From Candidatus Nomurabacteria bacterium (lineage in GTDB: Bacteria; Patescibacteriota; Minisyncoccia; Phycocordibacterales; SBAW01), in contig CALREW010000001.1 in assembly GCA_943356415.1 (NCBI GenBank), positions 149,252 through 213,251 on the forward strand: DNA of 64,000 nt, given 5' to 3'. Made by a program: the position numbers and the translations under genes. The notes beneath the pieces were generated by a model that made no database searches, had not been told where the DNA came from, and worked only from the letters and a program-made list of their open reading frames with translations. Of this stretch, positions 9,232-54,019 are shown piece by piece. Positions within the stretch are counted from its first letter, which is position 1; each line of letters opens with the position of its first letter.

Positions 9232-9258
9232 AGCTCGTAGCGTATAATCAAACAATAA

Positions 9259-10563
9259 ATGCGTTTCCGTACTGTCTTGGTATTTATTTTTGTGCTTAGC
9301 TTGTGCGCCTCGGCGCAACGGGTAGCCCTTTTTATACCCACATCTATCGTCTACGCCGCAACTGAAGAAGAACTTAAGGCGCAAATAGACGAACACTCGA
9401 AACGTATCAATGACCTTGAAGCCGAAATATCAAAAATAGAAGTCGATCTTGCGACAACGACAAAACAGAAACAAACCCTGCAATCGACCATAAAAACGAT
9501 TGACCTCTCGCGTCAAAAAGTGAGCAGCAACATCAACCTCACTCAAAATAAAATACAAAAAACTGATCTTCAGATAACCGGACTCGCCGAAAATATTACC
9601 GAGACGGATAAAAAAATACACCGTCAACGCGAGGCAGTCCTTCTCGCACTCGCGTCCGTTTCTGATCTTGAAGATAGCGGCCTCGCCGTCTCACTTTTCT
9701 CTGGTGAAGATTTCTCGTCGTTTTTTGCTTCTGCCGCATCATTGTCGAGTTTGCGCGAAGCGCTACGTGCTCAAGTAGAAAAACTTTCGGGACTCAAGAC
9801 CAATCTTCAGGTCAGCAAAAGTTCTGCTGAAACTAAGCGCGCTGAACTTGCCGCACTCAAACGCGACCTCGCAGACCAAAAATCGCTTCTCGATCAAAAT
9901 CGAAAAGAGAAAGATTCGCTTTTAACTACAACAAAAAACAAAGAAGCGAACTATCAAAAACTCCTTGAAGAAAAGCGTGCGCTTAAAGCGCAGTTTGAAT
10001 CAGACCTTCGTGACTTTGAAAACCAGCTTAACCTCACGGTTGATGCGGCGAGTATCCCGAAATATGGCTCCGGCGTTTTGAAATGGCCAGTTGATAAGGT
10101 GGTTATCACTCAAAACTTTGGCAACACGGCATTCTCGACACAAAACCCACAGATTTATAGCGGCAAAGGGCACAACGGCATCGACCTTGGTATTCCTTCC
10201 GGTAGCAAAATTAAAGCTGCACGCGGAGGCACCGTAAAAGGTACCGGCGACACTGACCTTACCTGTCCGAATGCCTCCTACGGCAAATGGGTTCTTGTTC
10301 AACACGACAACGGACTTTCAACCCTCTACGCCCACCTCTCCTATATCCGCGTGACCACGGGCACGAGTGTTGCGACAGGGGATTTGCTCGGCTACAGCGG
10401 CAACACTGGCTACTCAACTGGTCCACATCTTCACTTCACTGTCTATGCAACACAAGGTGTCGAAATACGTTCCTTCTCTAGTCAGTCGTGTAAAGGAAAG
10501 AAGTACACCATGCCCGTTGCTGATACCAAAGCGTATCTAAATCCGCTTTCATACCTACCGTAA
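9259..10563 (+). CDS. M23 family metallopeptidase with N-terminal coiled coil (EnvC/NlpD-like murein hydrolase activator)
   Basis: Signal peptide, long coiled coil, C-terminal GHNGIDL...YAHL...HLHF M23 motifs. Confidence 0.8.
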   Translation: MRFRTVLVFIFVLSLCASAQRVALFIPTSIVYAATEEELKAQIDEHSKRINDLEAEISKIEVDLATTTKQKQTLQSTIKTIDLSRQKVSSNINLTQNKIQKTDLQITGLAENITETDKKIHRQREAVLLALASVSDLEDSGLAVSLFSGEDFSSFFASAASLSSLREALRAQVEKLSGLKTNLQVSKSSAETKRAELAALKRDLADQKSLLDQNRKEKDSLLTTTKNKEANYQKLLEEKRALKAQFESDLRDFENQLNLTVDAASIPKYGSGVLKWPVDKVVITQNFGNTAFSTQNPQIYSGKGHNGIDLGIPSGSKIKAARGGTVKGTGDTDLTCPNASYGKWVLVQHDNGLSTLYAHLSYIRVTTGTSVATGDLLGYSGNTGYSTGPHLHFTVYATQGVEIRSFSSQSCKGKKYTMPVADTKAYLNPLSYLP

Positions 10564-10618
10564 TGCAAAAGGCGCTGCGGGATTTCTCCCGAGCGCCTTC
10601 GCCCGTTTCTTGATGCGC

Positions 10619-11119
10619 TTACGCGCTAGAAGCTGCCACCGAAGCCAGACGAGGCCGCTGGCGGATGAGAAGTTTACCCTCCACCACCTCGCCAAAGCCT
10701 GACTCGCGGTACATCTCACCCGCCGCGCCTTCCATGACATGCGCGACGATGGCGAGATGCCGCTTCGCCATGCTGTCAGCCTCGTTGACGAGGCATTCGA
10801 TCAGCGCCGCCCGGAGACGCAGCAACTCTTCGCCGTCCTTGATGGGGGCGAAGAAGAAGTTGGTGATGATCCCGGCGTTGCCGCTCAACAGGTCGAGGTG
10901 AGCGAGCGAGGCCGTCGCCACGATCCGGCCGGTCTTGCCGATCAGGCTACGACGGACCACCGCGATGCGGCAGGATGTCATGACGCGCTGGAGGCCTTCG
11001 AGGGTGACGGACACGCCACCTTTCGAGATGTGGTGGAAATCGTCGACATCAGCTTGCGTCACGCACGAAGGGTGCAGCGTATGGGCTTGGCCATAGACGA
11101 AGCCAGTGTTCTCAATCAT
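10619..11119 (-). CDS. Hypothetical protein (GC-rich island); start placed at MIENTGF, track ORF extends to 11215
   Basis: ORF in about 62% GC DNA downstream of the GNAT gene on the same strand; no recognisable motif. Confidence 0.35.
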   Translation of the reverse strand: MIENTGFVYGQAHTLHPSCVTQADVDDFHHISKGGVSVTLEGLQRVMTSCRIAVVRRSLIGKTGRIVATASLAHLDLLSGNAGIITNFFFAPIKDGEELLRLRAALIECLVNEADSMAKRHLAIVAHVMEGAAGEMYRESGFGEVVEGKLLIRQRPRLASVAASSA

Positions 11120-27808: not shown

Positions 27809-28264
27809 ATGAATCGAGAGATGCTCTACGCGTTTGCGGCCATGCTCCTGAGCGCGCCGCTTCTCATGGCCGTTCCGTTCTTCGAGTACAAGTACGGGAC
27901 GCCCAAAGCCGTGACGACGCTCTCCTGGTTCGCCGGAGAGATTGGCGTCATCGCCATCGTCGCGGTCGCGACGGGCCAGTTGAAGCCCCTGGCGGGCTAC
28001 ACCGGCAACCCTGGCATGTGGCTCGCACTTGTCGGCGGAGCTGTCATCGGAACCGGAGCGCTCTTCTGCATGATGAAGGCATTCGGCGGGGACGAACCGG
28101 CTGCTATCGTCATGACCATCGCAAACGCCAACCCGGCTGTCGCGGTGTTGGGGCTCATGTTCCTCGGCCTCGTCGTCAAGGACTTCCCCACCGGAATCAG
28201 CGACAAGCAGACCTTCGGGGTCTTCCTGTCGATACCGGTCTTCTACCTCCTCGCCTCGAAGTAG
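27809..28264 (+). CDS. Hypothetical 4-TM membrane protein (GC-rich island); start placed at MNREMLY
   Basis: GC about 63%; GGTGA RBS; followed by terminator. Confidence 0.4.
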   Translation: MNREMLYAFAAMLLSAPLLMAVPFFEYKYGTPKAVTTLSWFAGEIGVIAIVAVATGQLKPLAGYTGNPGMWLALVGGAVIGTGALFCMMKAFGGDEPAAIVMTIANANPAVAVLGLMFLGLVVKDFPTGISDKQTFGVFLSIPVFYLLASK

Positions 28265-28287
28265 TTCGCAGGCGACACCAGAAATCC

Positions 28288-28322
28288 ACCCTCTCGCCGC
28301 GCGGCGAGAGGTTTGTGTTTTT
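28288..28322 (+). terminator. Intrinsic terminator CCTCTCGCCGCG-CGGCGAGAGG plus T-run
   Basis: Read directly. Confidence 0.7.
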
Positions 28323-28337
28323 TGCTATACTAATTTT

Positions 28338-28790
28338 ATGACCCACCAAGAACTTCGCGACTCCGTTAAAGCTGCCATGCTCGCAAAAGACTCTGTTCGT
28401 TTGCTCGTTGTGCGCGGCCTTGTTACCGCTGCAACGAACGACCTTGTTGCAAAGGGACGCAAGCCAACCGAAGAACTTACTCCTGAGGAGCTGGAGGCTA
28501 TTGTGAGCCGCGCTGTAAAACAACGTAAGGACTCGATCGAACAATTTGAAAAAGGCGGTCGTGCAGACTTGGCAGAAACTGAAAAAGCCGAACTTTCAAT
28601 ACTTGAGGCGATGCTTCCCCCGCAGATGTCCGACGCTGAAATAGAAGTGGTGGTGCGCGCAAAGATGGCAGAAATGGGACCAATTGATAAACAGAAATCT
28701 GGCCAGTTTGTAGGCGCAGTTATGAAGGACCTCAAAGGCAAAGCCGAGGGCTCCGCAGTAAAAGCGGTCGTGGAGCGGGTGCTTGGATAA
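28338..28790 (+). CDS. GatB/YqeY domain protein
   Basis: Typical YqeY-like sequence. Confidence 0.75.
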   Translation: MTHQELRDSVKAAMLAKDSVRLLVVRGLVTAATNDLVAKGRKPTEELTPEELEAIVSRAVKQRKDSIEQFEKGGRADLAETEKAELSILEAMLPPQMSDAEIEVVVRAKMAEMGPIDKQKSGQFVGAVMKDLKGKAEGSAVKAVVERVLG

Positions 28791-28901
28791 ACTTGACGGA
28801 CCTCACTTTCTAACGAATAATCTTTGCAGATGGAATCTCGCCCAAAAAACAACAAACGGGCACCGAGAGAATCCACCCCGCAACCAAGAGACGAGGCATC
28901 G

Positions 28902-29546
28902 ATGGCAACGCCATTTAGTGAGAAGCCCGTCCAGGTTCGGCGGGCAATTGTCGAAGACGACGTCGTGGCACTCTCCGCGATGGGGCACCACGGCGCAATC
29001 CGCTCCAACATCGTGCAGGAGCGAAAGCGCCGCGAAGAGGATGCCGAGCACGAACGTCACCTGATGAACGCGGAACAAAAGTTGCACGAGGCCCACGAGG
29101 ACCTTGTTCCGGTCGGTGACAGCGAGTTCGAGCGCAACAACGTTCCCGAAGATGAGCGCCCTGCGATAATCGAGGATATACCGGCAATCCCCGCCGGCCT
29201 CTCCAAACGCGCACTTGCGTTCCTCACGCTCGCCGCGCGTAAGGCATCTGAGCGTTCTGGTCACCGCGTTTCGACCGACACGCTCGCTGACCTGTGGAAG
29301 TCGCAGCAGCATCACGATCGAAACATGCGCGGCTTTGGAAAGTCACTTACGGCTGCGATGAAAGATGTCGGTATCGCACCGAGTGAACGAGCGGACTACG
29401 GCGCAGCGCTCTTCGAGCTCAACCGACTCGGGATTAAACCCCCGCACGCAAGACGAGCAACCTCCAGACGAGGTACCAACCCTTCGCGGCAGGTACCACC
29501 TGGACAAGCGAAAGATGCGCCGAGAAAGCCCCGCAGGCTTCTCTAG
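28902..29546 (+). CDS. Hypothetical highly charged protein (GC-rich island); alternative starts at 28824 (TTG) or 28830
   Basis: TTGACG-N18-ATAATC promoter-like at 28791-28820; GAGG RBS before ATG 28902; opposite-strand ORFs are Arg-rich artefacts. Confidence 0.35.
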   Translation: MATPFSEKPVQVRRAIVEDDVVALSAMGHHGAIRSNIVQERKRREEDAEHERHLMNAEQKLHEAHEDLVPVGDSEFERNNVPEDERPAIIEDIPAIPAGLSKRALAFLTLAARKASERSGHRVSTDTLADLWKSQQHHDRNMRGFGKSLTAAMKDVGIAPSERADYGAALFELNRLGIKPPHARRATSRRGTNPSRQVPPGQAKDAPRKPRRLL

Positions 29547-29564
29547 GACCGGACTCCCGACAAG

Positions 29565-29598
29565 TGACGCCCCTCCCCTGGGGCGTCGCGTTGCGTTT
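29565..29598 (+). terminator. GC hairpin GACGCCCC-tcccct-GGGGCGTC followed by GCGTTGCGTTT
   Basis: Read directly. Confidence 0.45.
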
Positions 29599-29686
29599 AA
29601 GACCCTTGCAAATACAAGGATTAGTGGGATAGTAGGGGCGCTACCAGCCAACATCGGTAGCGTGTGTCTAGGGGAGCTCTTTTAGA

Positions 29687-30094
29687 ATGAAACCGAAAAA
29701 AGGCAAGCCCGAGCTTAGGCTCGCGGCGTGCGACGGCAAGTCGCTCGAACGCGGAACCATCCTGGTTCCGAAGAACCTCACGTCCTTTCTTCAACAAGGC
29801 GTGGACCCCATGGTCTTCACGACCATCAACGACTTCGACGACCAGTCGAACGGGGTGTTCTTCGCTACGTTGGGACGGAAGTTCCCGACGTTGCGCTTCA
29901 TGCTGCCGAACATCGAGTGCCCGAACCTCATCATGGCGTTCAGGTACTGCTGTCATCCCAACAACGCGCTGCGTCTCTCTCGTACGCTGCGTGAGCTGGG
30001 CTACCCGGTGATGCTCGTCCACATGACGCCGAGCAGTGTTCCGGAACAGACAGCGCGCATGTTCGCGCCCAATCGGATGAGGATCCGAGCCTGA
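29687..30094 (+). CDS. Hypothetical protein (GC-rich island)
   Basis: GGGGAG RBS, ATG; about 62% GC; terminator hairpin CGCGGCGGCC-tcct-GGCCGCCGCG after stop. Confidence 0.4.
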   Translation: MKPKKGKPELRLAACDGKSLERGTILVPKNLTSFLQQGVDPMVFTTINDFDDQSNGVFFATLGRKFPTLRFMLPNIECPNLIMAFRYCCHPNNALRLSRTLRELGYPVMLVHMTPSSVPEQTARMFAPNRMRIRA

Positions 30095-30149
30095 TCTCCT
30101 ACCCCCCAATCGATCGACGCGGCGGCCTCCTGGCCGCCGCGATTCGTTA

Positions 30150-30794
30150 TTATTTTAAATTTTCTAGCGTAACCGCATCCTCAATTTTAAAATCTCCAAT
30201 TCGTGTGCGGCGTAAACTTGCGAGCGTTGCAGGTACCTCAAGTCTTCGTCCGAGTTCTTCTGCAAGCGAGCGTATGTACGTGCCGCTTCCTACGTCAAAA
30301 CGAGCACGTATATCACAACCTCCCTTTTCACACGCTAACCCCAAAAACTCTGCCTTTCGTATTTCCATGTCTCTCATAGGTAGAGTCACCTCTTCACCTC
30401 GACGGGCCTTTTTATACAACGGTTCCCCTTCTCTCTTTATTGCTGAGTACGCAGACACAGGAAGCCGCAACATTCCTTGCAAACCTTCTATTGTCTCCTT
30501 TGCTCTCTGAGGCGCTACCGGCAAAATTGTTCTTTCTTCTAGTACCGCTCCTTCAATATCACTCGTGTCAGTGCGTATGCCGAGACGAATCGTCGCCTCA
30601 TATGTTTTCGGCAATTTTAAATATTCAGTAAGTTTCTTAGTCCCGGCACCAACTCCCAAGACAAGTAGCCCTGTAGCCATAGGGTCGAGCGTTCCCGCGT
30701 GACCGACTTTTTGCCTAACAATACGGCGCACTTGAGCCACAACACCAAACGAAGTGATGCCTGCAGGTTTATCAATAAGGAGTATCTGCTCCAT
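30150..30794 (-). CDS. truB: tRNA pseudouridine(55) synthase
   Basis: KPAGITSF and GHAGTLDPMATGLL motifs. Confidence 0.9.
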   Translation of the reverse strand: MEQILLIDKPAGITSFGVVAQVRRIVRQKVGHAGTLDPMATGLLVLGVGAGTKKLTEYLKLPKTYEATIRLGIRTDTSDIEGAVLEERTILPVAPQRAKETIEGLQGMLRLPVSAYSAIKREGEPLYKKARRGEEVTLPMRDMEIRKAEFLGLACEKGGCDIRARFDVGSGTYIRSLAEELGRRLEVPATLASLRRTRIGDFKIEDAVTLENLK

Positions 30795-30803
30795 ACGGAT
30801 ACG

Positions 30804-32207
30804 CTATGCGCGCAATTGACTCTTCAGCGCCTCGACGTCAGCGTCCATAGTAATAAAACTACCTTGCTTCATCTCCTCCTCTAACCCCACAAAACGTGCA
30901 GGGCGCTCCGGTACAAATCCAAGTGCTTCGCGAATCGTCTCTTCAAATTTGACCGGCAACGCAGTGGCTAAACAAATAACCGGCACTTCTTGTATGTCGC
31001 GCTTCTTTGCAACACAAACACCATCAGCAGTGTGCGGGTCGATAACAATGCCAGTGTCTTTGTAGATATCTTGAATGGTACGAATGCGTTCCTCATGTGT
31101 CGATGAACCGCTTTCAAACCCAAGCGCTAAAAATGCTTCAACGGAGAGGCCGTGATCTAAAAACGAAACAAGTCCCGTCGTATTGAATTCATGCATATAG
31201 GCTGAGAGCTTCGTGGCGTCGCGGCCAAAGAGGTCGAACGCGAGGCGCTCGTAGTTGGAGGCCTTTGAAATATCCATTGAGGGGCTCGAGGTAATGACTG
31301 CCTCCTTCTGGGCATAAACGCCCGTCTGCATTAGACGAGACAGTACGTTGTTCTCATTAGTAGCCACCACAAGGCGTCTGATGGGTAGTCCCATGCGCTT
31401 TGCGACATAGCCAGAAAACACGTTCCCAAAATTCCCGCTTGGCACCACAAAATCAACTTCCTCACCTACCTCTTTTACCGCCTGCAAATATCCGGAGAAG
31501 TAATACGGTACCTGTGAGCTAATGCGTCCCCAGTTTATTGAATTAACGGCACCAAGTGCGGCAAACTCTGAATCTTGTTTAACCGCTTTTACCAAATCCT
31601 GACAATCGTCAAAACGCCCTCGGATGCTGATGTTGCGGATGTTTCCACCTGAGAGCGCGCCCATCTGCGCGCGTTGAAATGCACTCATCCCAACTTCGGG
31701 ACTAAGCATAAAAAGTTCTACACTACCGAGCCCTTTGAACGCTGCCTCCGCAGCAGAGCCAGTGTCGCCTGAAGTAGCACCCAAAATCGTGAGGCTGTCT
31801 TTCCGACGAGCGAGTTCGTAATCCATTTCTCGACCAAGCAGCTGCATAGCCATATCTTTAAACGACGCCGTTGGTCCGAGTGAGAGATTCTGCAACTTGA
31901 GATTTCTTCCAACGTCAGTGACCGGTGTCACTTGTCCTTTTTCATTCGCAAAGGCCGGTTCAATATAGGTTGAGTCAACGAGCGAACGTAGTTCGACTGA
32001 GGGTATAGCGTCGCCAACAAGTTTTTGCTTTATAACAAATGCAACAGTTTCATACGAAGCACCTTTAAGCGCTCGAAGTTCATCGAGTGTTACCTTTGGA
32101 TACTCCTCCGGTGTATACAGCCCGCCGTCTGGAGCAAGACCAGAGAGGAGAACGTCCGTATATGAATGCTGCGCAGCAGAAGCGTCCCGAGTACTTACCA
32201 ATCTCAT
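30804..32207 (-). CDS. thrC: Threonine synthase (ThrC family PLP enzyme)
   Basis: PLP-lysine motif GPTASFKD; full-length ThrC-like. Confidence 0.75.
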   Translation of the reverse strand: MRLVSTRDASAAQHSYTDVLLSGLAPDGGLYTPEEYPKVTLDELRALKGASYETVAFVIKQKLVGDAIPSVELRSLVDSTYIEPAFANEKGQVTPVTDVGRNLKLQNLSLGPTASFKDMAMQLLGREMDYELARRKDSLTILGATSGDTGSAAEAAFKGLGSVELFMLSPEVGMSAFQRAQMGALSGGNIRNISIRGRFDDCQDLVKAVKQDSEFAALGAVNSINWGRISSQVPYYFSGYLQAVKEVGEEVDFVVPSGNFGNVFSGYVAKRMGLPIRRLVVATNENNVLSRLMQTGVYAQKEAVITSSPSMDISKASNYERLAFDLFGRDATKLSAYMHEFNTTGLVSFLDHGLSVEAFLALGFESGSSTHEERIRTIQDIYKDTGIVIDPHTADGVCVAKKRDIQEVPVICLATALPVKFEETIREALGFVPERPARFVGLEEEMKQGSFITMDADVEALKSQLRA

Positions 32208-32869
32208 CGATGGAGTTTTGACTTAATGAGATCAAGTGTCTCTTGTGCAGAGGTGTCACGTACCAATTGTGCAGGAATACTCATGTGAGCGAGTTTCCGA
32301 TAGGTCGCAAGGCGATCAGTAAGAAGCTTCGGGTAGCAGCGGCGGATGGACTCTTCATCGCTCTCTCCCACTTCGCGCGTGAGATACCCAGACCACGCGA
32401 CCGGTTTTGGCTTGCGGAAAAAGCGATCCATCACTTCGTGCAACGACTCTTCCCCTACATCAAGGTGGACAACGAGGCAGTTGTCTTTAAGGAGTACTAA
32501 CGTCGAGGGTTCGAGGTGCGCGACACTCCCAGTAGTATCGAAGACCAAGTTCTTGCCATGCATTTCCATCGATGCTTTTCGCGTGGCAGCATTTTCAAGC
32601 TCAAGATACTTCGCTTCCCGCTCCTCATACCCTTCACTTGTCGGATACCCAAGCCATGTGGAGATGGCATCCATATCGGCAAATCCAAGCGCTTTTTGTA
32701 TTTGCTCGTCTACTTGAAACCAAAAGAACTTCAGTTCATTCTGAAGCGCCTTAGAACGGTAGCTTTTACCGGCATTCGACATGCCGACAAACGCCAAGCG
32801 AAACGTGCCATTGGCGATATGCGCCTCAAACTCCTCTGCCGTGAGCTGCTCACTGTCCATGTAATGCAA
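32204..32869 (-). CDS. P-loop kinase (shikimate-kinase/NMP-kinase-like fold), translationally coupled to thrC-like
   Basis: Walker A GMSNAGKS, DTTG Walker-B-like; 4-nt ATGA overlap with thrC start. Confidence 0.5.
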   Translation of the reverse strand: MHYMDSEQLTAEEFEAHIANGTFRLAFVGMSNAGKSYRSKALQNELKFFWFQVDEQIQKALGFADMDAISTWLGYPTSEGYEEREAKYLELENAATRKASMEMHGKNLVFDTTGSVAHLEPSTLVLLKDNCLVVHLDVGEESLHEVMDRFFRKPKPVAWSGYLTREVGESDEESIRRCYPKLLTDRLATYRKLAHMSIPAQLVRDTSAQETLDLIKSKLHR

Positions 32870-34134: not shown

Positions 34135-35355
34135 ATGTCGCTTAAAAAAACCGACCTAGCGGTGACCATTCTTTTCATTGGAATTGTAGGATTGTTGATC
34201 CTTAGTCCGTACATACACCTGCCAAGATTTCTCATATCCAAAGAAGCGCACTACGTACAAACGCTTGAAGAACATTGCGGAAATCGACCGACGCAGTACA
34301 ACTGCTTAGAGCCGTTTGTAACCGAAACCATACGTACAGAAGGCCTTGATGCGGGACTTGAAATGATAAAGGCGTGGTATCTGCACACGCCTGAATTTCG
34401 ACAATTTTGTGACGCATTTACACGATACGTAGGAGTCGCCGCAGAAAAGAAAATTAAAGACTACGAAGCGCTTACCTACACAGAAAAAAGTGTTTGGTGT
34501 AACTACGGTTTTTATCACGGGTATATGCAGGCCTATATGGCTGAAGTTCAGGATGTAGAAAAAGGAACGGCATTCTGCACTCATATAGGCGAAAAATTGC
34601 ACGATTCTGCCCCAGGTGCTCAGTCAGAGTGTTTTCGCGCCCTTGGATACGCCATTGTGTTGCTTACCGGAGCAAAAGAGAAAGATATATCGAAGATTGC
34701 AGAGACGTCAGTAAAGCAGTGCAGAACACACGCAAAAGAACCTTTGGATGTGCGCCTTTGCGAAGAAGGAGTCTTTAGTGAATTGGGACAAGTCATTGCA
34801 ACTGGCGAATACGGTGCAATATCAAAGGACAATCCGCTTTGGCTATGTGATCAACAACAAAACGACATGCAAACAATTTGTTATGCAACGATGAAGTGGC
34901 TACCACTCATTTCGTTTGACATCAGAGGAGAAGATATTATTCCTGGCTTTAAGAAAATCGAGGAGCGCTATAGCGAACAAGAAATACAAGAATTGAGCAA
35001 AACTATAGAACAGCTGGTTTTTACACTCGCTTACAATCAAGCACGCCGTGGAACTTCTCTTCCTGCTGCAGAAAATTATAAAAAAGGTACAGACGCGTGC
35101 GCGGCACTACCTTCTATGTTCCTAAACCAATGCATAAGTGGCTTTGGCTTCGGACTCGCAAAGGGAGGTAAGCCTGGCGAGCAATATCATGAAGTGCTCG
35201 CCTTCTGCGAAGAGACCTCAAAGATTCCTGGATATCCGGTCAAAGAATGCGCACCATCGTCACTTGAATACCTCGGTCGATACTATTCACACGAGCTTTT
35301 TAAAAAAGTATGTACTGAATTTGAGACGTCTGTTGGAACTTCATGTGCTAATTAA
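34135..35355 (+). CDS. Hypothetical membrane-anchored Cys-rich protein (406 aa)
   Basis: N-terminal TM, about 20 Cys spread through extracytoplasmic domain; slightly AT-rich. Confidence 0.5.
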   Translation: MSLKKTDLAVTILFIGIVGLLILSPYIHLPRFLISKEAHYVQTLEEHCGNRPTQYNCLEPFVTETIRTEGLDAGLEMIKAWYLHTPEFRQFCDAFTRYVGVAAEKKIKDYEALTYTEKSVWCNYGFYHGYMQAYMAEVQDVEKGTAFCTHIGEKLHDSAPGAQSECFRALGYAIVLLTGAKEKDISKIAETSVKQCRTHAKEPLDVRLCEEGVFSELGQVIATGEYGAISKDNPLWLCDQQQNDMQTICYATMKWLPLISFDIRGEDIIPGFKKIEERYSEQEIQELSKTIEQLVFTLAYNQARRGTSLPAAENYKKGTDACAALPSMFLNQCISGFGFGLAKGGKPGEQYHEVLAFCEETSKIPGYPVKECAPSSLEYLGRYYSHELFKKVCTEFETSVGTSCAN

Positions 35356-41681: not shown

Positions 41682-43277
41682 TTAGAGCGTTGCTGCTGCG
41701 CGCAAACGAACCAAAGTGGATTCACGTGGAAGGGTGTACAGAAGCCACCCAGCCTTTGGACCTTGAGATTTGCCAAAGAAAATAAGATAGATAGCAGCAA
41801 AGAGTTCTGCTGGTGCAATCGTAAGTTCATCTTTGAGGCTGTGTATCTGCGTATGAAGCTCTTCTGGCGACGTCGCCTTCTCAAGTAATTCTGCGACACG
41901 CCCAAGTGCCGCCTTTTGCACGGCGGTAAGCGTCGAAGCAGATTCTGGCATTGTGTCGTGAAGCGCAAAGCGATATTTCTCTGGCGCTTGGCCTTTGAGC
42001 CAGCCCTTAGCGTACGCGGCGCGCTCATCAAGCTCGGCACGATCGAGATCAGTCAGTGCACTTCCCTTTAGTTCAGCGGCTGCGCTATAGAGATCGACGT
42101 GTGGCATCTGCACGGTAAAGGCAAGCTGTGAGAACCGCATCAAGAACGGCACTTCAATTTTCTGTTTTGAATCCCCGCGGTCATCAGTCTCAATGAGAGT
42201 GAAGAGGCGTGAGTAGTCATCATCATTTCCTGCCTTGTATCCTTCAGCCAACTTGTCATAGAGATCGTAGAGCACAGGGATGGTCTCGCCCGCCGGATCG
42301 AAGTTAAACGCCTGATTGATTTCTTTGCCAAGGAGTGCCAGACGAAATATTTTGGGCGGCACCAAGCTTGCAACGTCGCGCGCCGAAGAGCCGCGACCTT
42401 TCGATGACGCCATTTTCTGTCCACCGACAAGGAAGAATTCGTACGGCACATCGAACGGCGGTTCTATATTGAATACGTCTCGCGCAATGGCGTTGGCCAC
42501 GTCGCGGGCGCCACCTTTCGTGGAGTGGTCTTTACCCGCACCTTCAACATCAACGCCAAGTACGTACCATTTTGCGGCCCATTCAGGTTTCCATGGCAGC
42601 TTTGCGCGACCGCCGAACGGTGATACGCGACCAGAGTGACCACACCCCACCCCGCCCCAAGGCAGCTCGTGCGGTACGCACCTATACGCGACCGTCTCGC
42701 CATCAAAGTCGGAAGATTGCGTCATGGATACCTTGGCGCAGTTCTCACATATAACCGATATAGGGAGCCATTCTGACACCCGCTGAGACCCCGAAACTTC
42801 TTTGTATATCTCTCGGATACGATCTGCATTTGTTATGACCAGACGCATTGCTTCATCCATTTTGCCCGAGAGGTAAAGGTCTTTCGAATAGTAGAACGTC
42901 GGATGATATCCACTATCGCTGATGACCTTCATGAACTCGCCGCCATAGAAATCGGCATAATTTGGAGCCGAAGAGTCTGGTGATGGGATCTTGTAAAGTT
43001 GTCCACCAAGGAGCGGTTTATATTGATCCGCTGGCAAGTAATTTGGCAGACCGTCAAATGGATCAAAATCGTTTATCTCGTACTTAAATTCGTTCAGAAC
43101 GCCGCGTTCACGAAGCACGCGAGCTAAAAGGCCGTGGATAGCGACGCCACGCATCGAACCGACATGCACCCGGCCTGAGGCCGTCTTTTCATCGCGTATT
43201 AAAAGGGGCTCGCCTTTCTTGATGCGGTCCTTGAAACGCTCTTCTATTTCAGCTGCAATGCGGTCTGCCCAAAACAT
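41682..43277 (-). CDS. lysS: Lysyl-tRNA synthetase, class I (archaeal type)
   Basis: HVGS (HIGH-like) and KMASSKG (KMSKS-like) motifs, about 530 aa. Confidence 0.8.
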   Translation of the reverse strand: MFWADRIAAEIEERFKDRIKKGEPLLIRDEKTASGRVHVGSMRGVAIHGLLARVLRERGVLNEFKYEINDFDPFDGLPNYLPADQYKPLLGGQLYKIPSPDSSAPNYADFYGGEFMKVISDSGYHPTFYYSKDLYLSGKMDEAMRLVITNADRIREIYKEVSGSQRVSEWLPISVICENCAKVSMTQSSDFDGETVAYRCVPHELPWGGVGCGHSGRVSPFGGRAKLPWKPEWAAKWYVLGVDVEGAGKDHSTKGGARDVANAIARDVFNIEPPFDVPYEFFLVGGQKMASSKGRGSSARDVASLVPPKIFRLALLGKEINQAFNFDPAGETIPVLYDLYDKLAEGYKAGNDDDYSRLFTLIETDDRGDSKQKIEVPFLMRFSQLAFTVQMPHVDLYSAAAELKGSALTDLDRAELDERAAYAKGWLKGQAPEKYRFALHDTMPESASTLTAVQKAALGRVAELLEKATSPEELHTQIHSLKDELTIAPAELFAAIYLIFFGKSQGPKAGWLLYTLPRESTLVRLRAAATL

Positions 43278-43322: not shown

Positions 43323-44438
43323 CTACCGTACCGAGGTATACCCGCCAGGAACTCCTCGTTTTGAGAGTACGATCTGCCAGAGTTGCAGGTTGCGCGAACG
43401 GAAAAAACCTGCAAAGAGAAGAAGGTAATAGACCCACATGCGTTTGAAGCGGTCGTCGTACTTTCCCTTAAGTTTGTCCCAATTGTTGATGAAGTTCGAA
43501 TGCCATGCCATCAGTGTCTTGTCGTAGTCAGCACCGAAGTTGTGCCAGTCTTCCATAACAAAACGCCTCTCAAGGTGCCGACCTATCTGTGTGATGGAAG
43601 GCAACATGCTATTGGGGAAAATATATTTATTCACCCAGGAGTCTCCCGTCTGTTCTGACTCATTACCCCCTATGGTGTGCAAGAGAAAGAAACCGCCGTC
43701 TTTAAGAAGCGAGTGGGCCTTTTTGATATAGGTGCCATAGTTCTTATGACCAACGTGCTCCATCATGCCTAACGAGACGATGTGATCGAACTCACCCACC
43801 GTATCGCGATAGTCCTCAAGTCGAATTTCAACAGGAAGTCCTGCACAATTCTCGCGTGCAAGTGCCGCTTGTTCTTTGGAGACGGTGACACCCACAACAT
43901 GTGCGCCATATTTCTCTGCAGCAAATTTTGCAAAGCTTCCCCACCCACAACCAATATCAAGGACGGTATCGCCAGGTTTAAGGCCCAATTTTCGGCACAC
44001 TAAGTCGAGTTTTGCTTCCTGTGCTTCATCAAGATTTTTTGCGTCCTTCCAGTAGGCGCAGGTATAAACCATGCGCTTGTCTAGCATCGCGACGTATAGA
44101 TCGTTGCCAAGATCGTAGTGCTCCTCCCCGATAATGAACGCGCGACGCTTACTTTGAGGATTCACAATCCCTTCCAACACTCGTCGCACAACTCTGCCAG
44201 CGCCAGGCGCCGTTTTCGCCAACCCACCTTTCGCAACATGGTAAAAAAATTGATCAAGGGCTGGGCAATCCCACCAACCGTCCATATAGGACTCACCAAG
44301 GGCAAGCGAGCCACCAAAAGCAATGCGTCGATAAATCCGTTCATCGTGGATGGTCATATCCCACGGCCTACCACCATCCACTTTGATATCTGCGCTTTTG
44401 AGGAACCGCTGCGCTCCTTCCTTCGTAAAAAATGCCAT
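43323..44438 (-). CDS. cfa: Cyclopropane-fatty-acyl-phospholipid synthase family SAM methyltransferase
   Basis: VLDIGCGWG SAM motif and CFA-synthase-like length. Confidence 0.8.
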   Translation of the reverse strand: MAFFTKEGAQRFLKSADIKVDGGRPWDMTIHDERIYRRIAFGGSLALGESYMDGWWDCPALDQFFYHVAKGGLAKTAPGAGRVVRRVLEGIVNPQSKRRAFIIGEEHYDLGNDLYVAMLDKRMVYTCAYWKDAKNLDEAQEAKLDLVCRKLGLKPGDTVLDIGCGWGSFAKFAAEKYGAHVVGVTVSKEQAALARENCAGLPVEIRLEDYRDTVGEFDHIVSLGMMEHVGHKNYGTYIKKAHSLLKDGGFFLLHTIGGNESEQTGDSWVNKYIFPNSMLPSITQIGRHLERRFVMEDWHNFGADYDKTLMAWHSNFINNWDKLKGKYDDRFKRMWVYYLLLFAGFFRSRNLQLWQIVLSKRGVPGGYTSVR

Positions 44439-45173: not shown

Positions 45174-46877
45174 TCAGTCATCCTTTCCTTCCAACATCTC
45201 TTGGCGGTTACCATGCATCCATTCAAATGCACTAAGCATAACGCCCGGCGCACCGTAGAGATTTTTGTACGGTCCATGCTCAAGTAAAAGAACAAACGCA
45301 TACCGCGGATGTTCATAGGGGAAAAATCCGGTAACCCACGAATTAACATACGATTTACTCGAATCAAGTTCTGCGGTACCTGTCTTCGCAGCAATATGCA
45401 CGTAACCGAGGTTTAATGCCTTCGCGGTGCCTATCTGCGCACCCATGCGCATACCTTCAAAAAGTATTTGGTACTCCTCATACGTCATTGGCAGTGTCCC
45501 TTCTTTGCGTTCGCCGCGTGCACCCTGGATGATGGTTGGTGTTATAAGCGTGCCACGCGTGGCGATGGCCGAAACGGCGCGCAACGCCTGCAGTGGCGTG
45601 ACTTGAAAACCGTATTGACCAATAGATGTGTTGTACGTGTCGCCAAGACGCCACGGGTCGTCAGGAAACAGTTTTGCTTTCCACGCCTTACTTGGCACCG
45701 TGCCGTCTTCTTCTGGAAAATAGTCGATGCCGGTCTTTGAACCAAACCCAAAAGACCTGGCGTACTTTTCAAGCTTCTCTATTCCCAAACCCGCTTGATC
45801 ACCGAACCCGCCGCCTATGGTAAAGAAGTACACATTCGAAGAGACGGCGATGGCTTGGCGCATATCAACCCAGCCATGCGCTTTCCAATCTTTAAAGACG
45901 CTTGGCTTATCCGGGTTATATGGGTTTGGAACCGTGAGTGCACCCGTTGAAAGTATCGACTTCGTTGGACTAATAAGATTTTCGTTTAAGGCACCGAGTG
46001 CAAAGTAAGGCTTCATGATCGAACCTGGCGTAAAAGCGCCGAGTATCGCGCGGTTAAGAAACGGCTGACGCGTATCTTTTAAATACCCACGTATTGCTGC
46101 TTGATCACTTCTATCCGTCATAATCTGAGGGCTATACGACGGATAGCTCGTAAGTGCGAGTAATTCCCCCGTCGTAAGATCCATCACCGCGGCCGCGCCT
46201 CCACGAAAACCCGATTCTTCGATACGCGCTGCAAGGGCGTTATAGATAACCTGATTCAACTCTGCGTCAACGGAAAGCGCGATGGTCTCGCCATGTTTTG
46301 GCGCTGCAATAGTACTTTCTGAAGTTACCCTGCCTTTGGCATCAGTTTCCTGAATTTTCAAACCGTTTACCCCGCGCAGACGTTCATCAAGTGCTTTTTC
46401 TAATCCTTCGGCGCCAACGTACGTATCTTGGTAGTAAATGCCGGAAGAATCTTTTGCTGGTGCTTTTGCGTACCCAATGACGTGCGAGAGTCCCGTATAC
46501 GACGAATACACGCGCGAGGGGTAGTCACTGCCCTCTTTGTGTGAGTCGTGCACGAGGTCAACGCCACGCCGGTCAACAATGGTGCCGCGGTCAGCAAACA
46601 CATATTCGTGTGAAAGACGGTTGTTTTCAGAAAGCGCCGCATACGCAGTGCCTTCAAATATCTGTAAGTACGACGCTCTTCCGGCAAACGTAAGGACGAC
46701 GAGTGCAAAAACACCAAGAAGCACGGACGCAGTTCGTCGGCGAATCGGTTGCTCGATGCGTCCTTCAAACTGGTCGGTATCAAACGAAGGCAAATTGCTC
46801 GAGTCGATAAATATTTCGTCGGGAGCTATCTCCTCACTCTTTCGCTTTAACCCACGCAACAACTTTCTAAGCGGCAT
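45174..46877 (-). CDS. mrdA: Penicillin-binding protein 2 (elongasome class B transpeptidase)
   Basis: SIMKP, SSN, KTGTAE motifs; downstream of mreBCD. Confidence 0.85.
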   Translation of the reverse strand: MPLRKLLRGLKRKSEEIAPDEIFIDSSNLPSFDTDQFEGRIEQPIRRRTASVLLGVFALVVLTFAGRASYLQIFEGTAYAALSENNRLSHEYVFADRGTIVDRRGVDLVHDSHKEGSDYPSRVYSSYTGLSHVIGYAKAPAKDSSGIYYQDTYVGAEGLEKALDERLRGVNGLKIQETDAKGRVTSESTIAAPKHGETIALSVDAELNQVIYNALAARIEESGFRGGAAAVMDLTTGELLALTSYPSYSPQIMTDRSDQAAIRGYLKDTRQPFLNRAILGAFTPGSIMKPYFALGALNENLISPTKSILSTGALTVPNPYNPDKPSVFKDWKAHGWVDMRQAIAVSSNVYFFTIGGGFGDQAGLGIEKLEKYARSFGFGSKTGIDYFPEEDGTVPSKAWKAKLFPDDPWRLGDTYNTSIGQYGFQVTPLQALRAVSAIATRGTLITPTIIQGARGERKEGTLPMTYEEYQILFEGMRMGAQIGTAKALNLGYVHIAAKTGTAELDSSKSYVNSWVTGFFPYEHPRYAFVLLLEHGPYKNLYGAPGVMLSAFEWMHGNRQEMLEGKDD

Positions 46878-47013: not shown

Positions 47014-47268
47014 CTAGCGCAAATATTTCTCAAGTGCGATTGCACTGAGACCTAGTACTAGGGCTGCAACCGTAAACGGATACGCAACGTATGACGGCAG
47101 CCACGTAGGGGCGCCAAAAATAATATCGAGACAAAATCCAAGCGCTAGCCCGAGTGTTGGCACCACTGCAGAGAGTCCAATAAGTGCAATGAGTCCAGCA
47201 ATCCAGCTTGGGATGATGAGTCCTAAAATACCGAGAACGCCGAAAGCAACAAGTAATTTATTCTGCAT
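47014..47268 (-). CDS. mreD: Putative rod shape-determining protein MreD (short)
   Basis: Small multi-TM protein between mreC and mrdA. Confidence 0.35.
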   Translation of the reverse strand: MQNKLLVAFGVLGILGLIIPSWIAGLIALIGLSAVVPTLGLALGFCLDIIFGAPTWLPSYVAYPFTVAALVLGLSAIALEKYLR

Positions 47269-48058
47269 ACGCGCTTCTCCACACTTCAGCAAAGCGAAGT
47301 GAAAAAGGATTGGCCGCAAGGTGCATATATATTTCTGCCGCAGAATCTCCCCTCCCGGCTTCGATACTCTCTACGACAAACGACAAATTGGGTTCAATGC
47401 CCGGCAGCGTCACCAAGTCGCCCGCTGCCGCTTCCGCATCATGCGGGACTGATGCTTTGAGAGAACCTCCGCCGATACCTTCGGCGCGAATAGGAATACT
47501 GCCGCGCAAAAATGCATCGTATGAAGTATTGGGAGCAGAGTAGAGTTTTATGCGCGCAGTGGTGGCGTAGACCGCCTCGACGGTGCCAATAAGGAATGCC
47601 CCGCTTGCCGCAACGCGGTCCCCAACCTTCACTTGTTTATCTTCCCCGGCGTCAATGATGAGCGTGTCATAAGGACTCTCAGGTGGGCGCACCAGGACTG
47701 CCGCAAGGAGTGCATTTGGCTGTGCGGAACGACCCATCGATTCTTTGAGCGTGAGATTCTCTTCGTACAAGAGATTGCGATCAAGTACCGCGAGCTTTGA
47801 GGCAGCGAGTTGCTCTTTAAGCGAATCTCGTTCACGCAAAAGTGCATTCATCCCTCGAAAATACTCGGGCACTCGACCAAGTCCAGTACTGCTTATGTCG
47901 CTCGCACGCCACAGAGCCGAGAGACCTCCTCCTACCACTCGTTCAAGTGCTGGACGAAAGAAGAAACCAGCAATAAGGAGGGCAATAAAAAAACCGACCG
48001 CAACGAGTGCTCGGCGCAGCCCAGGACCTCGCTTTCTATTACGATAGATCGTCGTCAT
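47258..48058 (-). CDS. mreC: Rod shape-determining protein MreC
   Basis: N-terminal TM, coiled coil, beta-rich C-terminus; follows mreB. Confidence 0.75.
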   Translation of the reverse strand: MTTIYRNRKRGPGLRRALVAVGFFIALLIAGFFFRPALERVVGGGLSALWRASDISSTGLGRVPEYFRGMNALLRERDSLKEQLAASKLAVLDRNLLYEENLTLKESMGRSAQPNALLAAVLVRPPESPYDTLIIDAGEDKQVKVGDRVAASGAFLIGTVEAVYATTARIKLYSAPNTSYDAFLRGSIPIRAEGIGGGSLKASVPHDAEAAAGDLVTLPGIEPNLSFVVESIEAGRGDSAAEIYMHLAANPFSLRFAEVWRSAYAE

Positions 48059-49103
48059 GTTCGATAAGAATGTCGCGGTAGCTTTCTATATCTTCAAGTA
48101 CCACACCCGCGCCGCGTGCAACCGCGGTGAGCGGATCGTCCGCAACATGCACCGGTATTTTAACCCACTCGGAAATTAAGCGATCTAAGTCTTTTATAAG
48201 TGCACCGCCTCCCACTAGGTAAATACCGCTCTTCATAATATCGGCAAGTATTTCAGGCGGCGTTGTTTCGATAACTTCACGCACCGACTCAACAAGCGTA
48301 TCGATAGACTGCGACACCGCTTCGCGCACATCAGAGTCCGTCACAATCACTTCGCGCGGCAACCCGGTAATAAGATCGCGTCCGCGTACCACCGCTTCAA
48401 GTGGTCGGTCGCCTTCAATCACCGCTCCGATAGCCATCTTTACATTTTCTGCCGTTTTCTCTCCTATCAATATTTTGAACTCCGATCGTATATGAGAAAT
48501 GATGTCCTGATTGAGTTTGTCTCCCGCGATTCTGAGATTTTTTGAACGAACGATGCCACCAAGCGAAATGACGGCGATATCAGTGGTGCCACCACCAATA
48601 TCGACAATCATTGAGCCGACCGCTTCTTTTACCGGAAGACGGATGCCGAGCGCTGCAGCCATCGGTTCTTCGATAATGTGCACTTCGCGCGCGCCAGCAT
48701 TCTGAGCCGCATCGCGCACCGCGCGTATCTCGACGTTCGTAATGCCGGAAGGCACACCCACGACAACGCGTGCGCCGAGCAGTTTTCTTCCTTCACCCTG
48801 CGCACGGTTCATCAAATATGCCAGCATTTCTTCGGTCACTTCGAAATCTGAAATAACACCGTCAACGAGCGGACGCACCGCAACAAGATGTCCGGGAGTG
48901 CGCCCCAACATTTCCTTTGCAGAGGCACCCACCGCAACAACACGGCCGGTCTTTTGGTTGACCGCCACGACTGATGGCTCATTGACTACAATGCCGCGCC
49001 CGCGCACATAGACAAGCGTATTGGCCGTTCCGAGGTCGATGCCGAGGTCGTTGCTCGCGAGGCTCGCTATTTTTTCACGCAGTCGTTTAAACATAGAGAG
49101 CAT
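48039..49103 (-). CDS. mreB: Rod shape-determining protein MreB
   Basis: Actin-like ATPase with canonical MreB motifs (DLGTANTLVYV, VDIGGGTTD). Confidence 0.9.
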   Translation of the reverse strand: MLSMFKRLREKIASLASNDLGIDLGTANTLVYVRGRGIVVNEPSVVAVNQKTGRVVAVGASAKEMLGRTPGHLVAVRPLVDGVISDFEVTEEMLAYLMNRAQGEGRKLLGARVVVGVPSGITNVEIRAVRDAAQNAGAREVHIIEEPMAAALGIRLPVKEAVGSMIVDIGGGTTDIAVISLGGIVRSKNLRIAGDKLNQDIISHIRSEFKILIGEKTAENVKMAIGAVIEGDRPLEAVVRGRDLITGLPREVIVTDSDVREAVSQSIDTLVESVREVIETTPPEILADIMKSGIYLVGGGALIKDLDRLISEWVKIPVHVADDPLTAVARGAGVVLEDIESYRDILIEHDDDLS

Positions 49104-52616: not shown

Positions 52617-53315
52617 CTAGAGTTTATAGACCACATCCTTACGTTCAACGACGACCGGCCAGCCCATGCGCTGTGCGTAGCGATATAACTTTTTATTTGG
52701 ATTAAAAACCAGTGGCTTTTCTACCATTTCAAGGAAACTAATGTCGCTCTCGGTGTCACCCACCCCGACAGACCCCTTCAGCGTAAGACCTTCTTTCTCT
52801 ATCGCTCGCTTCACAATATTTGCTTTGTTGCCAATGAGGTGCAAGTCGAGCACCGCACCCGTAAAGCAATCGTTGGGTCCAACGTCGTACATCATGCCGT
52901 ACACCTTATGGAAGCCGAGTCGGCGTGCAAATTGGTCCACCACAAGTTTCGGTGAATGCGATATTGCGAGCATATAGTATCCACGCTCGCGGAGATTTCG
53001 TACAAGCGCTGCAGTGTGCAAATACGTGCGGAAGCCAAGACGTTCAACGAGACGTTTTCCCGCCCACTCAAGCTGACGATACTCAACTCCTTTTAAGTTG
53101 CGGACAAACGCTTGGACCGTTGCGCCAACATAGGCTTCATAATCGCCTCGCCGATCGAGCCAGGCTTCTTTTTCTTTTTGATACGTTCCACGCACCGATG
53201 CGTCAAAGACTCCTGCTGCAATAAGTTCTTCTACCAGCTCAATAAGAAGTGAGGAGCGAAAGATGGTCCCATCGATATCGAATATCGCAACTTTCCTCAC
53301 TGGCTTCGTAGTCAT
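52617..53315 (-). CDS. HAD-superfamily subfamily IB hydrolase; start placed at MTTKPVRK
   Basis: FDIDGT (motif I), GVGDTESD (motif IV). Confidence 0.65.
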   Translation of the reverse strand: MTTKPVRKVAIFDIDGTIFRSSLLIELVEELIAAGVFDASVRGTYQKEKEAWLDRRGDYEAYVGATVQAFVRNLKGVEYRQLEWAGKRLVERLGFRTYLHTAALVRNLRERGYYMLAISHSPKLVVDQFARRLGFHKVYGMMYDVGPNDCFTGAVLDLHLIGNKANIVKRAIEKEGLTLKGSVGVGDTESDISFLEMVEKPLVFNPNKKLYRYAQRMGWPVVVERKDVVYKL

Positions 53316-53329
53316 CAAGGTAAGTATAG

Positions 53330-54019
53330 CTAATGCGCCTTTGTGCGAAATACCTTCCCCGCTTTTGGATATATGGTAACAAGTGGGTCCTTTGAGGTGT
53401 CGTAGGCTCGTGCCGGAGCAATGCGACGCCCGTAGTAGATGACGCGGTGGGTAAAATGTGGCCATTCTTTCTTTGGGAGCATCTGCATCAAGTCTCGCTC
53501 GATGCGAACTGCATCTTTGTAGTCAGAGAGATCGAAGCGGTGCACAAAACGTATGACATGCGTGTCTACCGTGATACCACCGCTTTCACCATACAGGTCG
53601 CCGAGGATAACGTTGGCCGTCTTACGACCCACGCCAGGTATTTTTATCATCTCCGGAAGCGTGGTCGGCAGCTTCCCCTTCAAATTATTCTTTACGTATT
53701 TTGCTGCAGCAAGAATGTTGCGCGTCTTTGCATTTGCAAAAGTGACTGAGCGTATAAGTTTTGAAAATTCTGCCGGATCAGCCACGCAATAGTCGTTGAG
53801 TGTTTTATAGCGTTTAAAAAGCGCCGGAGTCACCCGGTTTACCATTTTATCCGTGCACTGAGCAGACAACTGTACTGCAACCATAAACTGCCATGGCGTT
53901 TTATAGACCAATTCGGTTATGGCTTCAGGGAACAGTTTCTTTAGAGCCTTATCAAGCTTCAAAATACGAGCCTTTCGCTCGGCTAACTTTTTGCCCGTCA
54001 TGGCTAGCTTGCTGGGCAT
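53330..54019 (-). CDS. nth: Endonuclease III; start placed at MPSKLAMTGKK, as the track ORF extension to 54826 is antisense of the GC-rich gene
   Basis: HhH-GPD motif and C-terminal 4Fe-4S Cys cluster region. Confidence 0.8.
   Translation of the reverse strand: MPSKLAMTGKKLAERKARILKLDKALKKLFPEAITELVYKTPWQFMVAVQLSAQCTDKMVNRVTPALFKRYKTLNDYCVADPAEFSKLIRSVTFANAKTRNILAAAKYVKNNLKGKLPTTLPEMIKIPGVGRKTANVILGDLYGESGGITVDTHVIRFVHRFDLSDYKDAVRIERDLMQMLPKKEWPHFTHRVIYYGRRIAPARAYDTSKDPLVTIYPKAGKVFRTKAH

Follow-up and report, generated by a model that had tools for sequence, protein, structure and literature searches.

The 64,000-nucleotide stretch of DNA analysed here (hereafter the window), from the reduced genome of a CPR bacterium (Patescibacteria), carries a small P-loop kinase gene that runs into a threonine synthase gene, which raises the question of what substrate this kinase phosphorylates. 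A preliminary description of the locus had proposed a non-orthologous kinase for homoserine, or for another hydroxylated amino acid, that supplies ThrC. We examined this proposal through the gene boundaries, the predicted fold and active-site residues of the kinase, and the gene contexts of its relatives.

Gene boundaries at the locus

According to the open reading frames of the window, three genes lie on the minus strand and point in one direction, in the order kinase, thrC and truB. The features are as follows.

32204–32860, minus strand: P-loop kinase of shikimate-kinase fold, predicted to act on homoserine; 218 aa when started at the ATG at 32860
32204–32207, minus strand: ATGA shared by the end of the kinase gene (stop TGA) and the beginning of thrC (ATG), read directly from the sequence
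30804–32207, minus strand: threonine synthase ThrC of the long (yeast/proteobacterial) type, 467 aa, with Pfam Thr_synth_N, PALP and THR4_C
30150–30794, minus strand: truB, tRNA pseudouridine-55 synthase, short 214-aa form (TIGR00431)
30118–30141, no strand assigned: palindromic hairpin, perfect over 10 bp and GC-only, directly 3' of truB, from the terminator-like scan

The kinase reading frame extends upstream to a TTG codon at 32869, which gives the 221 residues (32204–32869) first attributed to the protein. That reading frame and its Walker A motif, GMSNAGKS, are as first described. The start is not, since public gene calls and the alignment of homologues place it at the ATG at 32860, with a protein beginning MDSEQL. 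At the other end of the gene the junction reads ...CAT CGA TGA / ATG AGA TTG, and the kinase stop and thrC start do share the ATGA that had been reported. Translationally coupled genes are expected to overlap in this way, and the kinase/thrC junctions of relatives have similar overlaps of 1–4 nt or short gaps.

ThrC scored 235.6 bits against TIGR00260 (cutoff 167.1) in the NCBIfam profile search. It matches the solved threonine synthases of PDB 3v7n (E = 1.1e-126) and PDB 4f4f (E = 2.2e-106), with which its PLP-lysine motif, SFKD, aligns. Judged by its sequence, the ThrC of the window appears to be a functional threonine synthase of the ordinary kind.

The third gene stands apart. An 11-nt overlap between thrC and truB had been reported; instead, the thrC stop codon TAG (30804–30806) is followed by a 9-nt spacer, cgtatccgt, and then by the truB ATG at 30794. 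Because the thrC stop precedes truB in its own reading frame, truB cannot start farther upstream. The truB product scored 188.6 bits against TIGR00431 (cutoff 151.45) and matched Pfam TruB_N and the first 40 of the 66 positions of TruB_C_2. The gene follows thrC in the same species only (L001 and L002) and in 0 of the 66 genome loci. Since the adjacency is not conserved, the link to truB reflects genome compaction and not a conserved operon; truB is a mere co-directional neighbour outside the pathway. The promoter and terminator scan returned nothing above shuffled expectation except the hairpin at 30118–30141, which may mark where the transcription unit ends. Elsewhere in the window, the protein encoded at 52617–53465 returned no record on look-up.

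Fold and substrate-site residues of the kinase

The AlphaFold2 model of the kinase has a pLDDT of 93.3, and its 40 or so best Foldseek matches in the PDB are almost all shikimate kinases. AroK and AroL structures (1kag, 2iyq and others) were matched with E values of about 1e-7 and target-normalised TM scores of 0.72–0.78. The model thus predicts an NMP-kinase-like shikimate-kinase fold with a P-loop. The P-loop is intact, and the protein also keeps the lid lysine (PKP) and an Asp and an Arg that align with Asp34 and Arg136/139 of shikimate kinase. No GHMP-family model of Pfam or NCBIfam matched the kinase at E ≤ 0.1.

The solved structures nearest in fold are without exception shikimate kinases, and the protein might be a genuine but divergent AroK. 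Its score with Pfam SKI (PF01202) is marginally above the gathering score (29.3 versus 22.1 bits), and source records label family members "shikimate kinase" (JGI and some NCBI records) or "hypothetical". We nevertheless consider this identity very unlikely. The kinase fell short of every NCBIfam shikimate-kinase equivalog (AroK/AroL) by about 180 bits, scoring 14–23 bits against cutoffs of 186–204. The shikimate-binding residues, which we take to be DxD, Arg58, the GGG motif and Arg136/139, are kept at two places only, D51 (the second Asp of DxD) and R183 (the C-terminal Arg). The family has no conserved Arg at the Arg58 position, and the GGG motif aligns with the T-G-S that follows an invariant Asp (Asp108, motif DTTGS). 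Moreover, the substrate subdomain is remodelled with WxGxP and PKPVxW, there are no aro genes within the 64-kb window, and the conserved gene contexts of the family consist of threonine-pathway genes. As findings that would speak against its proposal, the preliminary description had named a canonical thrB elsewhere in the genome together with membership of the kinase in an unrelated family, such as shikimate kinase with conserved substrate residues. On the second point the outcome favours the proposal: the shikimate-binding set is not kept, and all NCBIfam shikimate-kinase models fail.

The profile searches that had been suggested at the outset gave, besides the marginal SKI match, the Desulfovibrio homoserine kinase model NF040667 (hom_kin_desulfo) as the best NCBIfam model, at 25.7 bits and far below its cutoff of 197. 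The same model ranks first for five other family members, at 24–36 bits, all below the cutoff. In the window kinase this score barely exceeds those of the shikimate-kinase models, which counts against a homoserine kinase.

The family has invariant motifs of its own, namely WxGxP, DTTGS, PKPVxW and RRCYP...R...Y. Across all 71 context-labelled sequences, 26 positions are at least 95% conserved, and the window kinase has all 26. No alignment column separates the kinases with an adjacent thrC from those without.

Gene contexts of the kinase family

The kinase family comprises about 700 clusters at 50% identity and has no dedicated curated model. It ranges over CPR bacteria, marine Caulobacterales and probable algae. 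The thrC gene adjoins the kinase gene in 41 of the 66 genome loci (18 CPR loci with the kinase before thrC, 2 divergent loci and 21 alphaproteobacterial loci with thrC before the kinase) and in 28 of the 61 metagenome loci, so that the adjacency spans unrelated phyla and several gene orders. The remaining 25 genome loci lack an adjacent thrC, which counts against a homoserine kinase.

Several operons place the kinase within the pathway itself. In one, thrA, the kinase and thrC abut or overlap (L077); others read thrA-asd-kinase-thrC (L114) and hom-kinase-thrC (L132 and L111). In a further operon, lysC-ACT-hom-kinase-asd, the kinase lies between hom and asd (L071); the next gene after asd encodes a chorismate-binding enzyme, which counts against the homoserine-kinase assignment. 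At L073, kinase-thrC is convergent with ilvA/D/C/BN genes. The kinase is also fused to aspartate-pathway enzymes, as kinase + AK + ACT + HSDH in P0174 and as AK-ACT-HSDH-kinase in P0215, P0256 and P0271, and thrC follows directly behind the P0215 fusion gene. In these cases the kinase fills the thrB position or is fused to threonine-pathway genes, and the operon holds no other homoserine kinase gene. Since members of the family are fused to, or lie inside, threonine-pathway operons, the family very probably represents a missing, non-canonical homoserine kinase. In vertebrate THNSL1, an N-terminal shikimate-kinase-like domain is fused to a ThrC-like domain; our literature search found no paper on this fusion, and there was no kinase–ThrC fusion among the best 150 representatives of the family.

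The proximity to thrC might still be an accident of a compact genome, with the kinase serving an unrelated housekeeping role. The unrelated truB is packed equally tightly, 9 nt downstream, and kinase loci that lack thrC have unrelated housekeeping neighbours, among them an aminoacyl-tRNA synthetase, TsaD and RNA methyltransferases. However, the association recurs in CPR bacteria, Alphaproteobacteria and other lineages, in three gene orders and as fusions with thrA. Compact-genome chance therefore cannot explain it, and we regard this explanation as the least probable of those considered, with hardly any weight. The neighbours at the thrC-less loci, mostly named by eye, further include TrmH-like and other methyltransferases, a DHH phosphoesterase, a LOG-family protein, a glyoxalase and an FAD oxidoreductase; no common theme emerged among them.

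Two further observations count against a homoserine kinase. First, neither the 64 kb of the window nor the ±10 kb around the 66 related genome loci yielded a thrB, hom, asd or lysC gene, where hom, asd and lysC would be needed upstream. Because no upstream pathway gene lies nearby, homoserine is possibly scavenged in this CPR organism. Second, for kinases on very long Paceibacteria contigs, which reach 715 kb and include a complete 644-kb chromosome, no matching ThrC occurs among the best 120 ThrC relatives. This contig matching is weak, as it reached ThrC relatives down to about 60% identity and missed even the window's own 425,570-bp contig. The kinase may accordingly persist without ThrC in some Paceibacteria. 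An apparent pairing of a kinase (P0039) and a ThrC (P0507) on one contig of about 710 kb was rejected, as the two come from different organisms.

These observations bear on a further alternative, in which the Paceibacteria kinase acts on another hydroxylated small substrate, such as serine, threonine, 4-hydroxythreonine or a scavenged metabolite, and the adjacent thrC is a relic or encodes an enzyme that uses a non-canonical phosphoester. The many close Paceibacteria relatives without an adjacent thrC, and perhaps without any thrC, would fit such a role, as would the lack of upstream homoserine genes near the Paceibacteria loci and in the window. On the other hand, no alignment column tracks the presence of an adjacent thrC and all invariants are kept, which argues for one chemistry across a family that is tied elsewhere to hom, asd, thrA and thrC. 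Moreover, the ThrC of the window scores above the cutoff of the threonine synthase equivalog and closely resembles threonine synthases of solved structure, and the absence of thrC was deduced from the weak contig matching described above. We therefore consider a different substrate unlikely, while giving it more weight than either of the other two alternatives.

Proposed reaction and comparison with known systems

Taken together, the sequence data suggest that the kinase is probably an ATP-dependent L-homoserine kinase built on a shikimate-kinase fold, which feeds the threonine synthase encoded by the overlapping gene. The support comes from comparative genomics: the AK-HSDH fusions, the operons with the kinase in the thrB slot, the hom-kinase-asd arrangement and the adjacency to thrC across phyla all favour the non-orthologous homoserine kinase proposed in the preliminary description. 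The kinase would phosphorylate the γ-hydroxyl of homoserine, its presumed substrate, to yield O-phospho-L-homoserine, which ThrC would turn into L-threonine and phosphate. An amino-acid pocket may be shaped by the WxGxP segment peculiar to the family and by Asp108, invariant within DTTGS. In this CPR organism, the kinase and ThrC would form a two-step module from homoserine to threonine, with the homoserine perhaps scavenged.

A wider picture can be offered tentatively, as a possibility that we hold with less than even confidence. The kinases of CPR bacteria, marine Caulobacterales, soil and marine lineages and probable algae would constitute a widespread homoserine kinase family that partly explains the "missing ThrB" gap. 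Paceibacteria, which appear to lack the steps from aspartate to homoserine, would salvage homoserine from the host or the environment and convert it to threonine, and some relatives would have only the kinase, retained for another use of O-phosphohomoserine. If so, the two-gene salvage route would be a rare retained capacity for making an amino acid in an otherwise auxotrophic symbiont.

Homoserine kinase is among the steps most often missing when the threonine pathway is reconstructed from genomes. GapMind could assign it only with low confidence in 20% of 148 prototrophs, and about half of these cases had no candidate at all (PMC7311316). The family of about 700 clusters is a concrete candidate for the missing enzyme. 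If the homoserine-kinase assignment is correct, it would fix annotations that falsely imply remnants of the shikimate pathway in CPR genomes, and it would mean that some CPR bacteria can make threonine from homoserine or, in some lineages, from aspartate. It would also represent a second independent recruitment of the shikimate-kinase fold for an amino-acid hydroxyl.

The first such recruitment is known from Desulfovibrio, where DvMF_0971, a relative of shikimate kinases, complements E. coli thrB (PMC5764234). A search of the literature on shikimate-kinase-like homoserine kinases and on CPR threonine synthase found only this precedent and GapMind. The window kinase and DvMF_0971 have in common a P-loop fold of the shikimate-kinase type and the same proposed reaction. 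Their likeness was judged from profile scores with NF040667, which is the top curated model for every family member tested, at the sub-cutoff scores given above. The window kinase exceeds the 163 positions of the model by about 55 residues, and its family is set apart by invariant motifs of its own.

With AroK and AroL, the kinase has in common Walker A and the second Asp of DxD (D51 in the kinase). The basic residue of the lid is K152 in the kinase and Arg in shikimate kinase, while the C-terminal R...Y of the kinase (R183 and Y187) corresponds to ERNPLY. The two groups are only 15–21% identical; the kinase has D-T-T-G-S in place of GGG, does not conserve Arg58, and differs further in its longer substrate subdomain, an insertion after the lid, and a setting of threonine genes with no aro genes.

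In Bacteroides, TIGR02535/BT2402, a protein resembling phosphoglycerate mutase that is encoded beside thrA and thrC, has likewise been proposed to fill the missing ThrB step (PMC7311316). It differs from the window kinase in its fold and in its proposed phosphate donor. BT2402 failed to complement thrB, and its activity is unconfirmed (PMC7311316).

Finally, the family occupies the same operon slot as the canonical ThrB of E. coli thrABC, a GHMP kinase, in the order thrA-[kinase]-thrC (L077 and, with asd interposed, L114). The kinase is proposed to catalyse the reaction of ThrB and likewise has ThrC as its downstream partner, whereas the folds are unrelated. A kinase of this family in the ThrB slot would thus be a non-orthologous displacement.

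Locus structure and surroundings

The three co-directional minus-strand open reading frames of the preliminary description were all found:

32204-32869, minus strand: kinase, 221 aa from a TTG start, carrying the P-loop motif GMSNAGKS
30804-32207, minus strand: thrC, 467 aa
30150-30794, minus strand: truB, 214 aa

In public gene calls, and likewise in the alignment of homologues, the kinase starts at the ATG at 32860, yielding a product of 218 aa. The kinase and thrC overlap by 4 nt as described, the TGA stop and the thrC ATG sharing ATGA. The 11-nt overlap claimed for thrC and truB is absent. The TAG stop of thrC is followed by nine bases and then by the truB ATG at 30794 in the same frame, so that no earlier truB start is possible. 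The locus observation is thus partly confirmed, the truB overlap being wrong. Directly 3' of truB, a perfect 10-bp all-GC palindromic hairpin (30118-30141; CGCGGCGGCC tcct GGCCGCCGCG) could serve as a terminator for either strand.

The ThrC-family assignment of the middle gene was borne out. Its product contains the Pfam domains Thr_synth_N, PALP and THR4_C, passes the NCBIfam threonine synthase equivalog (235.6 bits; cutoff 167.1) and aligns over its whole length, SFKD lysine motif included, with threonine synthases of solved structure (3v7n, E=1.1e-126; 4f4f, E=2.2e-106). Judging by its sequence, it looks like an ordinary, functional threonine synthase. The truB product is short; it scores above the NCBIfam TruB equivalog cutoff and comprises the catalytic domain and the first 40 of the 66 positions of Pfam TruB_C_2; the C-terminal PUA domain, present in E. 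coli TruB, is apparently missing.

All other annotated genes in the window are housekeeping genes, encoding aminoacyl-tRNA synthetases, cell wall and division proteins (MraZ, RsmH, FtsI, Mur ligase, MurG, FtsW, MreB, MreC and PBP), DnaB, RecR, RmuC, ribosomal proteins and DNA repair proteins. No hom, asd, lysC, thrB or aro gene was found within the 64 kb. Although the CPR genome is reduced, its rod-shape set is complete, with two full-length MreB paralogues (48039-49103 and 57268-58281, both minus strand), MreC and a PBP2-type transpeptidase (47258-48058 and 45174-46877). A cyclopropane-fatty-acyl-phospholipid synthase gene (43323-44438, minus strand; CMAS, 301.8 bits) adjoins that of a class I lysyl-tRNA synthetase (41682-43277, minus strand; tRNA-synt_1f). 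The plus-strand gene at 34135-35355 encodes a cysteine-rich protein of 406 aa that starts with a hydrophobic segment and has no Pfam match; the loci where it was seen (L001 and L002) are all from the same species. The region 28000-30100 has a G+C content of 0.57, as compared to about 0.50. Around its YqeY-like gene (28338-28790) and two ORFs without annotation (28824-29546 and 29687-30094), numerous long ORFs overlap on the two strands, so that any assignment of coding frames is tentative.

Fold and conserved residues of the kinase

In profile searches the first gene gave only a marginal match to Pfam SKI (29.3 bits; gathering score 22.1), and every NCBIfam shikimate-kinase equivalog cutoff was missed by about 180 bits. 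The top NCBIfam match, to the Desulfovibrio homoserine kinase model NF040667, scored 25.7 bits (cutoff 197). The AlphaFold2 model, built from 54 sequences (pLDDT 93.3, pTM 0.89), has shikimate kinases as its nearest solved folds (15-21% identity; target-normalised TM about 0.72-0.78).

In the profile alignment with E. coli AroK, the family keeps the P-loop, the second Asp of DSD (D51 in the family), the basic residue of the lid (PKPVxW in the family, KRPLL in AroK) and the C-terminal R...Y motif (R183/Y187; ERNPLY in AroK). In contrast, DTTGS, whose Asp is invariant, stands in place of GGG of AroK, conservation is lost at the Arg58 position, and the family has its own WxGxP in the substrate subdomain and an insertion after the lid. 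Across 71 sequences from all context classes, 26 positions are at least 95% conserved. The window kinase has all 26, and the most parsimonious interpretation is therefore that all family members share one chemistry. No residue column of this alignment separates kinases with an adjacent thrC from those without.

Distribution and gene contexts of the kinase family

A single-sequence search with the kinase returned 360 relatives, an exhaustive profile search 699 clusters at 50% identity (251 at E<=1e-30), and a profile from distant members 1,509 clusters at 90% identity. The named homologues belong to Patescibacteria, among them Kaiserbacteria, Adlerbacteria and Paceibacterota, which places the window in a CPR bacterium. 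On the CPR side the family spans Paceibacteria, Microgenomates/Levybacteria, Peregrinibacteria and Gracilibacteria; it also occurs in free-living marine Alphaproteobacteria (Robiginitomaculum, Litorimonas, Algimonas and Hellea) and in soil and marine metagenomes. Source records, where they give a name, use 'hypothetical protein' or 'shikimate kinase', and neither Pfam nor NCBIfam holds a family-specific model. Eight members (P0133, P0135, P0136, P0137, P0140, P0146, P0151 and P0154) bear N-terminal extensions of 50-160 residues rich in Ala, Arg and Ser, which look like organelle transit peptides of eukaryotic forms. One of them, P0136, is a EukProt entry. Together these observations suggest that eukaryotic algae use the family as well.

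Several members are fused to enzymes of the homoserine pathway, in the order kinase, aspartokinase, ACT and homoserine dehydrogenase in P0174, and aspartokinase, ACT, homoserine dehydrogenase and kinase in P0215, P0256 and P0271. The P0215 fusion gene is directly followed by thrC on a 351-kb contig. Further relatives lie in operons or clusters (thrA, fused aspartokinase-homoserine dehydrogenase; hom, homoserine dehydrogenase):

L077: thrA, kinase, thrC; genes abut or overlap
L114: thrA-asd-kinase-thrC
L132 and L111: hom-kinase-thrC
L071: lysC-ACT-hom-kinase-asd; overlapping junctions
L073: kinase-thrC, convergent with ilvA, ilvD, ilvC and ilvBN

None of the operons examined contains a second candidate homoserine kinase. 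In L071, asd is followed by a gene (9777-11063) for a chorismate-binding enzyme (PF00425); no other neighbour observed in the family is related to the aromatic pathway.

The immediate neighbour of the kinase is thrC in 41 of 66 GTDB genome loci, with the order kinase>thrC in 18 CPR loci, thrC>kinase in 21 alphaproteobacterial loci and a divergent arrangement in two (Gracilibacteria/Peribacteria). In an independent metagenome sample the two genes adjoin in 28 of 61 loci, many of the others being too short in flank to judge. Chance packing cannot explain a link that recurs in three gene orders, in several phyla and as gene fusions. In the marine Caulobacterales (the four alphaproteobacterial genera; L044, L046-L053, L055-L059 and L061-L067, about 7900-10650 in each), the thrC-like gene precedes the kinase, often overlapping it, and, as judged by eye, an XRE-HTH/cupin-like regulator gene usually lies just upstream. 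Their ThrC proteins share 29-34% identity with the window ThrC, yet score above the TIGR00260 cutoff.

Many Paceibacteria have a well-conserved kinase without thrC within 10 kb on either side (L004-L013, L016-L018, L020-L021, L024, L026-L027, L040-L041, L043, L045 and L078-L081). In a neighbour-joining tree, the window kinase falls within a clade in which none of the other kinases adjoins thrC; in more basal clades of Paceibacteria, adjacency is the usual state. For the very long kinase contigs of 715, 644, 489, 464, 387, 382 and 364 kb, no contig of equal size was present among those of the 120 nearest ThrC relatives, and ten other kinases had such a match; the test is weak, since the window's own contig escapes it. 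The result hints that the kinase is retained in the absence of ThrC by some Paceibacteria, and a number of near-complete genomes, the complete chromosome OZ253947.1 among them, may be devoid of the window-type ThrC.

Predicted function and known homoserine kinases

The fusions, operons and thrC adjacency support the earlier proposal of a dedicated small kinase supplying the ThrC substrate as a non-orthologous homoserine kinase. On this strong comparative evidence the enzyme is probably a homoserine kinase. It would convert ATP and L-homoserine to O-phosphohomoserine, from which ThrC, encoded by the overlapping gene, would form threonine. The fold, the catalytic motifs and the gene contexts are established, whereas the substrate and the parts played by D108 and the WxGxP segment are inferred. 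Neither the window nor any Paceibacteria locus has an upstream pathway gene close to the kinase, and the organism may salvage homoserine.

GapMind rated homoserine kinase as low-confidence in 29 of 148 prototrophs, with a putative TIGR02535 alternative in only 15 of the 29 (PMC7311316). The kinase family is a testable candidate for filling this gap, which recurs in genome annotation, and for the threonine-making capacity of CPR bacteria. A precedent is DvMF_0971 of Desulfovibrio vulgaris, a shikimate-kinase-related homoserine kinase whose mutants are threonine auxotrophs and which complemented E. coli thrB (Price et al., PMC5764234). The family of the window kinase appears to be the same kind of solution, but falls outside the curated NF040667 model.
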